DNA of 64,000 nt from Candidatus Anstonellales archaeon (GCA_038890745.1 JAWAFD010000001.1:32001-96000), one strand, 5' to 3'. Shown: positions 5,929 to 19,311, numbered from the stretch's first letter. The notes: generated by a model not told the origin, from the sequence alone. Translations and numbers: made by a program.

Positions 5929-6130
5929 GCCAAGGTAGCTCAGCCTGGTTATGAGCGCCAGACTCATAGGAAATAAACTTATGAGTGATGAGCCTTTTGG
6001 CGATGATATAAAATGGCGTTCTAACTTAGGAACGCTCTTAGAAGAAAATTCTTCTGAGAGATCTGGAGGTCGCGGGTCCAAAGAGCCCTTTTTGCTGGTG
6101 GAAAAGGGTTTGGAAATCCCGCCCTTGGCA
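5929..6130 (+). tRNA. tRNA-Met(CAT), elongator type, with two BHB introns: 37/38 (5969..6060, 92 nt) and 59/60 (6083..6116, 34 nt)
   Basis: Acceptor stem GCCAAGG/CCTTGGC+A, D stem GCTC/GAGC, anticodon stem CCAGA/TCTGG with CTCATA|A loop, T stem GCGGG/CCCGC. BHB helices CTCA/TGAG and TCCA/TGGA with 3-nt bulges. Confidence 0.9.
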
Positions 6131-19013: not shown

Positions 19014-19019
19014 TAGGGT

Positions 19020-19279
19020 GGTGGGCATCCCGGTTCACCCCTCCACCATGAAGCTAAGTCCAAACCTCTGCTCGCCCCTGCAACCCCCAAAGCATGCCTT
19101 CAGAGGCTTAGGGCTGCTCCTTCCGGCCTGACCCGCTTCGCCAGGGAAGACATCGATGGGGACAGGGGGTCTCAGCTTTGGAATGGGTTCACTCCATAAT
19201 GGATGGGTTATCCGGGCATTCGGCCCGCCATGAAGAGGATTTGCGGAACGGGGACCCCTAACCCCCTACCTAGCCCACC
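19020..19279 (-). ncRNA. ffs: Archaeal signal recognition particle (7S) RNA
   Basis: Reverse complement begins GGTGGGCTAGGTAGGGGGTTAGGGGTCCCC, contains helix 8 TCAGGCCGGAAGGAGCAGC, and its 3' end GCCCACC pairs with the 5' end; GC-rich. Confidence 0.92.
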
Positions 19280-19311
19280 AATATTTTTTAGGAAAAACGA
19301 GTTAATAAATG

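Follow-up and report, generated by a model that had tools for sequence, protein, structure and literature searches.

A putative one-kink-turn box C/D guide for its own wobble cytidine in the intron of an archaeal elongator tRNA-Met gene

We analysed a stretch of 64,000 nucleotides (nt) from Candidatus Anstonellales archaeon (GCA_038890745.1 JAWAFD010000001.1:32001-96000), hereafter the window, which carries on its plus strand, at positions 5929..6130, an elongator tRNA-Met(CAU) gene with two introns. The intron at the canonical 37/38 position (5969..6060, 92 nt) is probably, at a rough probability of 0.65, a stripped-down box C/D guide that possesses one kink-turn (K-turn) and is directed to the wobble nucleotide C34 of its own precursor. 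The initial annotation of the window had proposed a self-targeting C'/D' guide for 2'-O-methylation of C34, and every comparative test that we ran lends support to this proposal. The intron contains a 9-bp antisense to the anticodon loop, a D'-like box at one fixed nucleotide from it and a K-turn built on this box, and all of them are conserved in related genomes with compensatory changes.

Proposed guide, K-turn and gene structure in the window

Exon 1 (5929..5968, tRNA positions 1-37) was assigned by direct reading, with C34 at 5965 and A37 at 5968; this and all features described below lie on the plus strand. Within the intron, the antisense guide CTTATGAGT (5978..5986) is antiparallel to a target strand composed of A31-A37 and the first two intron bases (5962..5970). 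The pairs are AU, CG, UA, CG, AU, UA, AU, GU and GC, that is, eight Watson-Crick pairs and one G-U pair spanning N+2 to N+10. The guide is followed by the N+1 nucleotide G5987 and the D'-like box AUGA (5988-5991), which together occupy 5987..5991, and the box makes the non-bulged strand of the K-turn. The canonical stem of the K-turn is a GCC-UUUU-GGC hairpin (5992..6001), and the C'-like side (6002..6008) comprises the bulge GAU (6002-6004), the GA of the sheared pairs (6005-6006) and then UA. In the DNA, positions 6002-6009 downstream of GCC-TTTT-GGC read GATGATAT.

The fifth nucleotide upstream of ATGA is G5983, which stands opposite C34, so the N+5 rule is satisfied when counted from 5988-5991, as the initial annotation had stated. 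Its other sequence statements, concerning the guide, G5987, ATGA, GCC-TTTT-GGC and GATGATAT, were also confirmed by direct reading. It had overlooked the T-loop intron and a second antisense segment at 6014-6021, both described below.

At its splice sites, intron 1 matches a bulge-helix-bulge (BHB) motif, with the helix CTCA (5963-5966)/TGAG (6055-6058) and 3-nt bulges at 5967-5969 and 6059-6061. This geometry, a 4-bp helix with two 3-nt bulges, is kept in a constrained fold of -72.2 kcal/mol. Exon 2 (6061..6079) runs from A38 to about position 56. It is followed by intron 2 (6080..6113), an insert of about 34 nt in the T-loop whose borders are ambiguous by a few bases, several neighbouring choices being accepted by ARAGORN. 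Exon 3 (6114..6130) gives the remaining T-arm, the 3' strand of the acceptor stem and A73. Once the 92-nt intron and the T-loop intron were removed in silico, ARAGORN called tRNA-Met(cat), in agreement with the direct reading of the exons. The unspliced gene was missed by ARAGORN in default mode and by Rfam; since tRNA finders miss this gene, DPANN annotation therefore under-counts tRNA-Met. Six DNA sequencing runs cover the stretch or part of it, and none of the runs listed for the locus is of RNA.

We identify the CAU gene of the window as elongator tRNA-Met because the initiator sits elsewhere, TiaS was not found and both tRNA-Ile genes have unlike acceptor stems. The acceptor stem of the window tRNA is GCCAAGG/CCTTGGC and its discriminator is A. 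The other CAT tRNA of the genome is of initiator type, with A1 and G29-G31 in the anticodon stem, and the initiator identity was rejected for the window gene. A tRNA-Ile2 identity was also rejected: TiaS, which places agmatidine on tRNA-Ile2, was not found in the genome by a search that was positive in four archaeal control genomes, and tRNA-Ile(GAU) and tRNA-Ile(UAU) exist with GGGCC acceptors, versus GCCAAGG here. The tRNA-Ile(UAU) gene is located at C1 +103895 of the genome, and AUA is probably read by its UAU anticodon and not by agmatidine in this organism.

Conservation, covariation and phylogenetic range

A BLAST search of the gene against 60 relatives gave many matches over exon 1 and the first ~53 intron bases, from 12 families of the order. 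All 30 BLAST-selected loci, which include the window's own and represent the 12 families, contain the antisense, one nucleotide and NNGA. For a larger comparison 85 loci were collected and 84 were parsed (L065 failed); after removal of the mis-parsed L006 and L076 and the collapse of five duplicates, 77 unique sequences were obtained. Loci L035-L089 of this set had been selected by a pattern that already included the core TGAGT.

The one-nucleotide spacing between antisense and box is identical in 77/77 sequences, as it is in 30/30 of the BLAST-selected loci. The base at N+1 itself varies (G in 48, T in 21 and A in eight), and the D'-like box is ATGA in 62, CTGA in seven, TTGA in six, and GTGA and CAGA in one each. 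The hairpin closes straight onto the GA of the D' box in every sequence. The bulge on the other strand is GAT in 46, AAT in 17, TAT in nine and TGT in four (one was a mis-parse), and its L3 position is always U. The GA on the C' side is invariant, the next base is U in 56/77, and in most sequences position 3b/3n has U opposite U. The first GA of 'GATGA' is not conserved, and a continuous helix or a K-loop register was rejected on this ground. The sequence requirements of a true K-turn, namely a stem, a 3-nt bulge and tandem G-A/A-G pairs, are thus present in 77/77. The K-turn geometry suggested by the initial annotation holds up in the same manner, NUGA, hairpin and NNU-GA being found in all 77 with a covarying hairpin.

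Through RNAalifold (69 sequences), both helices were predicted independently. Paired cells amounted to 93.1%, compared with 83.2% in shuffles, and none of 500 shuffles was as high. The covariation score was 0.271 against 0.102 in shuffles (again 0/500 as high) and 0.025-0.096 for slid registers. In the K-turn stem, pair 2 is C-G in 47 sequences, G-C in 20 and U-A in one, and pair 3 is C-G in 32, A-U in ten, G-C in eight and U-A in seven. The initial annotation had asked for covariation in relatives, and the guide and boxes were found to be conserved with compensatory changes.

The same behaviour extends to the two target positions in the intron, whose covariation was seen across 68 distinct sequences. 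The first intron base and its guide partner are A-U in 28, G-C in 14, G-U in six and U-A in six; for the second intron base the combinations are G-C in 27, G-U in 13 and A-U in nine. Because these two bases covary with the guide, its target is the unspliced precursor, where it spans the exon-intron junction. The spliced sequence ACTCATAA, which the initial annotation had offered as a perfect match of the guide, is therefore not the target.

The conserved unit is a single K-turn with one guide, i.e. the D' half of a C/D RNA, because there is no upstream box C, RTGATGA is not conserved and minimal introns stop after the K-turn. No box C was found upstream of the guide in any compared sequence, in agreement with the initial annotation, which had seen no terminal C box. 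It had also considered that GTGATGA (5985..5991) could instead be a C box; this idea is rejected, as RTGATGA is kept in just 37/77 sequences. Among the compared introns, between 4 and 68 nt separate the C' side from the 3' splice site. The minimal introns of other orders are about 43 nt long (L085-L089, and L136, the gene of Candidatus Micrarchaeum sp. A_DKE); they end a few bases past the K-turn and contain no D box.

The pattern ACTCATA-N(1-31)-GAGT-NN-TGA was found in 123/176 genomes of the order and in 48/63 of the high-quality ones, and a reversed-pattern control matched in about 30 genomes. A tighter TGAGT form was found in 215/401 genomes sampled from the phylum, all of the same class, and the controls matched in about 14. 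A scan of named genomes gave, among the matches listed, mostly Candidatus Micrarchaeota, including the complete genome of A_DKE. Among these matches there were, by label, at least six Woesearchaeota, at least three Nanoarchaeota and at least one Aenigmatarchaeota, together with at least 12 labelled 'uncultured Methanosarcinales', a label that is doubtful. The full layout was recognised by eye in 32/32 non-bacterial named records among the matches listed; two bacterial matches among them had no tRNA context and were rejected as chance. In the phylum of the Nanoarchaeota-labelled genome, the loose pattern was found in 36/121 genomes versus about 26 for the control, barely above background, and the TGAGT form in 22/121, counted as pattern matches alone. 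Judged by these motif searches, the element is widespread in DPANN archaea.

Precursor folding, mechanism and alternatives

The genome contains fibrillarin (PF01269, 1.5e-85), Nop5 (PF01798, 4.7e-55) and two L7Ae-family genes (PF01248, 1.9e-29 and 7.6e-15). A genome lacking fibrillarin and Nop5 would have spoken against the initial annotation; both genes are present, and L7Ae in addition. The Nop5 and fibrillarin genes (C1:218878-219537 and C1:221888-222529) are not adjacent but about 2.3 kb apart, and a tRNA-like match (C1:220641-220689) lies between them. Four textbook C/D small RNAs (sRNAs), with the order C, 11-12 nt, CTGA, 3 nt, C', 12 nt, CTGA, were found in the genome against none in five shuffles. 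They are located at C1 -212433, C1 -128518, C4 -96767 and C4 -31014, with perfect C/D'/C'/D boxes and a 3-nt K-loop linker. No anti-Met antisense was present in these four canonical sRNAs. A regular-expression scan of the genome for K-turn modules gave 36 hairpin matches, of which the one in tRNA-Met alone lies in a tRNA intron. A tRNA-Trp gene was not recognised in the genome by a crude scan.

The small hairpin and the guide duplex (pair probabilities 0.93-1.0) are both present in the unconstrained minimum free energy (MFE) fold of the precursor, at -86.4 kcal/mol. Shuffled versions reach -67.7 +/- 3.3 kcal/mol. There are 25 base pairs between exon 1 and the intron in the MFE fold, compared with a mean of 7.7 for shuffled introns, and three of 200 shuffles reach 25. 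The guide pairing exceeds chance, because the duplex is present in the MFE fold, stands out in the shuffle comparison and belongs to a conserved, covarying motif in relatives. The guide-bound fold and the splicing fold are mutually exclusive, since the guide competes with the BHB strand and U39 for A31-A37. In the guide-bound fold a 10-bp local hairpin (6036..6059) hides the 3' BHB strand TGAG (6055-6058) and a D-like CTGA (6054-6057); this hairpin is specific to the window's genome and not a conserved feature.

The second antisense segment, TGGCGTTC (6014..6021), faces exon positions 22-29 (5953-5960) and was recognised in the MFE fold and by comparison of relatives. In the MFE fold the pairing extends with the D-loop and D-stem as far as 6035. 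The segment begins, in most of the window's order, 7-8 nt past the GA of the C' side and its partner is exon ~22-28. It covaries with the exon (GAGCGCC/GGCGYTC, GAGTGCC/GGCAYTC, GAGTGCA/TGTACTC), and among clear cases it lies 3-39 nt from the 3' splice site. It is not an in-register methylation guide, because there is no box at a fixed distance from it; as a D guide it was rejected, since the implied N+5 would be position 26 in some sequences and 27 in others. No such segment occurs in the minimal introns of other orders. The segment probably acts as an accessory pairing and opens the D stem and the anticodon stem.

From the anatomy, conservation and covariation of the element, the protein genes and the tRNA identity, we infer the following course of protein binding, methyl transfer in cis and later events. 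In the unspliced precursor, intron positions 5978-5986 would form a duplex with A31-A37 and intron bases 1 and 2, beside the NUGA K-turn. L7Ae would bind the K-turn and recruit Nop5-fibrillarin, and fibrillarin would 2'-O-methylate the wobble C34, the partner of the fifth guide base upstream of the box. In the window's order, the second antisense against exon 22-28 would probably help to open the anticodon and D stems. The precursor would then refold to the cloverleaf and BHB, and the intron would be excised. Judging by the title of a 2011 paper by Joardar, the tRNA-Met guide of Haloferax reportedly acts on the precursor. The predicted two-conformer picture fits methylation before splicing, and it equally feeds the notion of a folding or timing device discussed below.

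We may speculate further that DPANN archaea with at least three phylum labels use a natural 'half-mer' ribonucleoprotein (RNP) in which the substrate bears its own guide. One K-turn would suffice, the stable fold would be a checkpoint for methylation before splicing, and the second arm would open the stems; this extended scheme is tentative, and we hold it at somewhat less than even odds. Two precursors might perhaps share one Nop5 dimer in such an RNP, and the second arm would correspond, in archaea, to the accessory pairing of eukaryotic small nucleolar RNAs. If the self-guiding reading is true, a widespread conserved tRNA intron of genome-reduced archaea obtains a function, and it would offer a clean natural case of modification before splicing that is enforced by RNA refolding. 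If one substrate-attached K-turn suffices, this bears on the debate about K-turn number and architecture of C/D RNPs.

Several observations weigh against an intron that guides methylation of its own C34. The element has a single K-turn; a box C is missing upstream of the guide, and a terminal box D is not conserved. Some archaeal small RNPs need both motifs for efficient activity. Its boxes are degenerate (AUGA in 62/77) and the fourth position of the non-canonical stem is seldom paired, unlike the genome's own sRNAs, which have perfect boxes. Within the guide duplex, A37 is unpaired in 25/77 sequences in the ungapped register and in 22/65 alignment cells with letters, and U36 faces U in seven sequences. 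In introns of the Woesearchaeota and Nanoarchaeota type the cis duplex is just ~5-8 bp. The guide-bound fold is predicted to exceed the cloverleaf with BHB in stability by 14 kcal/mol (-86.4 vs -72.2), and this could equally mean a folding or regulatory role.

The distribution of the motif also counts on this side. Three families of the class are without it (f17, 0/21; f20, 0/8; f21, 0/7). In three genomes that were read, the motif-negative lineages keep a 37/38 intron in tRNA-Met without guide or K-turn: a 17-nt hairpin, a GC hairpin of ~45 nt and an A-rich low-complexity insert of ~150 nt (L209-L211; G211, G187 and G213). Fibrillarin was found in 392/401 genomes of the class, motif-negative lineages included, and because it is near-universal its distribution is uninformative on the motif. 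A trans guide of the form TGATGA-N(4-8)-TGAGT-N-CTGA was found in 0/5 motif-negative genomes, where degenerate boxes would escape the pattern. Methylation of C34 to Cm34 by the intron-guide route is not universal, because these lineages keep fibrillarin and a guide-less intron.

Part of this evidence suits another explanation, in which K-turn and anti-anticodon helix together serve folding or timing: L7Ae would hold the non-cloverleaf fold or stabilise the excised intron and so govern the timing or the occurrence of splicing, with no methyl transfer. The guide-bound conformer of the MFE fold hides both splice sites, the 5' one in the guide helix and TGAG in the hairpin, and the single K-turn with its degenerate boxes, the persistence of fibrillarin and intron in lineages without the element, and the accumulation of the Nanoarchaeum equitans intron as a stable RNA all agree with it. 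Such a device has, however, no need for the exact one-nucleotide spacing of antisense and NUGA, kept in 77/77, that places C34 at N+5. C34 is moreover the position at which C/D RNPs are known to methylate the ribose in archaeal tRNA-Met, and the arrangement of parts follows the D' half of the guide in the tRNA-Trp intron; we therefore consider a purely structural device quite unlikely. A conventional two-motif C/D sRNA, with GTGATGA (5985-5991) as box C, CTGA (6054-6057) as box D and an incidental anti-anticodon stretch, can point to both consensus boxes in the window, but it was rejected on conservation. The C-box positions vary freely (GTTATGA, GTGCTGA, GTAATGA) beyond the 37/77 with RTGATGA, the distance to the 3' splice site is variable, the minimal introns contain no D box, and the conserved part lies upstream of the supposed C box, where a canonical sRNA does not need it. 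This arrangement is extremely improbable.

A further alternative keeps the guide for C34 and changes its partner: the intron would act in trans and pair with the junction of a second pre-tRNA-Met, and two half-guides might share a Nop5 dimer. The mechanism of Haloferax pre-tRNA-Trp was later shown to be trans-acting, according to a review (PMC7994747), and Nop5 dimers are described as bridging two K-turns (PMC3608112). The N. equitans intron is stable and abundant once excised, and the short introns of the Woesearchaeota and Nanoarchaeota type give a cis hairpin of 5-8 bp with a tight loop. The Micrarchaeota forms favour cis instead, having a gap of 3-30 nt between target and guide and a hairpin that dominates the predicted ensemble (P 0.93-1.0). 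Cis and trans action are inseparable by sequence analysis, and we regard trans action as unlikely next to a guide that acts on its own precursor.

Other introns of the genome and comparison with known systems

The T-loop insert of the window gene belongs to a type, AGAGCCC-TTTTT-GC...AAAAGGG, that several other tRNA genes carry at the corresponding point of the T-loop. Related inserts were located at C1:154406-154470, C1:11352-11396 and C4:116726-116768 of the window's genome and in the tRNA genes C4 +92379 (Lys-CTT), C1 +103895 (Ile-TAT) and C1 c21178-21398 (Arg-TCG); these look like one family of related, possibly mobile, introns. The 37/38 introns of the initiator-like tRNA-Met (C1 c28883-29071) and of tRNA-Arg CCT (C2 c281-427) are alike over tens of bases with the common core CTAAGAGTAGTARG, and this likeness suggests that introns have moved from one tRNA gene to another. 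Palindromes rich in GC, of the type CCAGGGGGA...TCCCCCTAGG occur inside the long introns of the tRNA genes for Cys (C1:9270-9475), Arg (C1 c21178-21398) and the initiator (C1 c28883-29071), and also beside tRNA-Met genes of relatives (L008, L009). The window additionally encodes an archaeal signal recognition particle RNA at 19019-19280 on the minus strand (Rfam RF01857, 103.5 bits).

Cm34 of archaeal elongator tRNA-Met is reported to be made by box C/D RNPs (PMC4033218, PMC6601510). In Haloferax volcanii a separate sRNA, sR-tMet, is described for this position (PMC4033218). sR-tMet and the Pyrococcus sRNA have the same target C34 as the window guide, but they are separate trans-acting genes, whereas the window guide lies within the intron of its own target. 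Compared with a canonical C/D sRNA, the window element has the internal C'/D' K-turn and the N+5 antisense and has no terminal C/D K-turn; its antisense is 9 bp, from N+2 to N+10 (canonically about 10-12 nt).

The nearest published relative is the 66-nt intron of the N. equitans elongator tRNA-Met, from which a stable C/D-like RNA was reported (Randau 2012, Genome Biol 13:R63, PMC3491384); the supplement row for this RNA gives a coverage of 31,500 and 'no prediction' for its target. Like the window intron, it lies at 37/38 of the elongator tRNA-Met. Read by eye, its motifs follow in the same order, with a stretch against the anticodon loop, one spacer nucleotide and CUGA, then a 3-bp hairpin and GAU-GA, and N+5 falls on C34. 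What the paper calls a 'box C with a T to G mutation' is the counterpart of the C'-like side in the window, and the RNA is treated there as a possible ordinary C/D sRNA, unlike in our reading. The N. equitans intron has a GC-rich second hairpin where the window intron has the second antisense. In the literature that we searched, no paper was found naming C34 as a target of a tRNA-Met intron, or describing the element in DPANN beyond N. equitans, and Fujishima 2011 (PMC3239211) contains no mention of tRNAMet, box C or methylation. If the self-guiding reading is true, C34 is the target that the abundant N. equitans RNA has lacked since 2012.

In crystals, half-mer C/D RNAs assemble with L7Ae, Nop5, fibrillarin and the target (Xue 2010, via PMC6239191 and PMC3608112). 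The half-mers resemble the window element in having one K-turn and one guide; they are laboratory constructs, whereas the element of the window would be a natural half-mer, joined covalently to its target.

The euryarchaeal pre-tRNA-Trp intron guides Cm34 and 2'-O-methylation of U39 with two motifs (PMC7994747). This guide, as described for H. volcanii and for Pyrococcus sR50 (PMC7994747, PMC4033218), has much in common with the window element: it lies in the 37/38 intron of the tRNA that is modified, with a D'-type guide to position 34, its duplex crosses the exon-intron junction, and the guide and splicing folds are exclusive. The pre-tRNA-Trp intron has C/D and C'/D' motifs and two guides, whereas the window tRNA-Met has one K-turn and one in-register guide. 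The second guide of the pre-tRNA-Trp type is in register with box D and directed to U39, whereas the second segment of the window aims at exon 1 and has no fixed box. On the present comparison, the element is best filed as a putative one-K-turn, self-targeting variant of the known intron-borne C/D guides.

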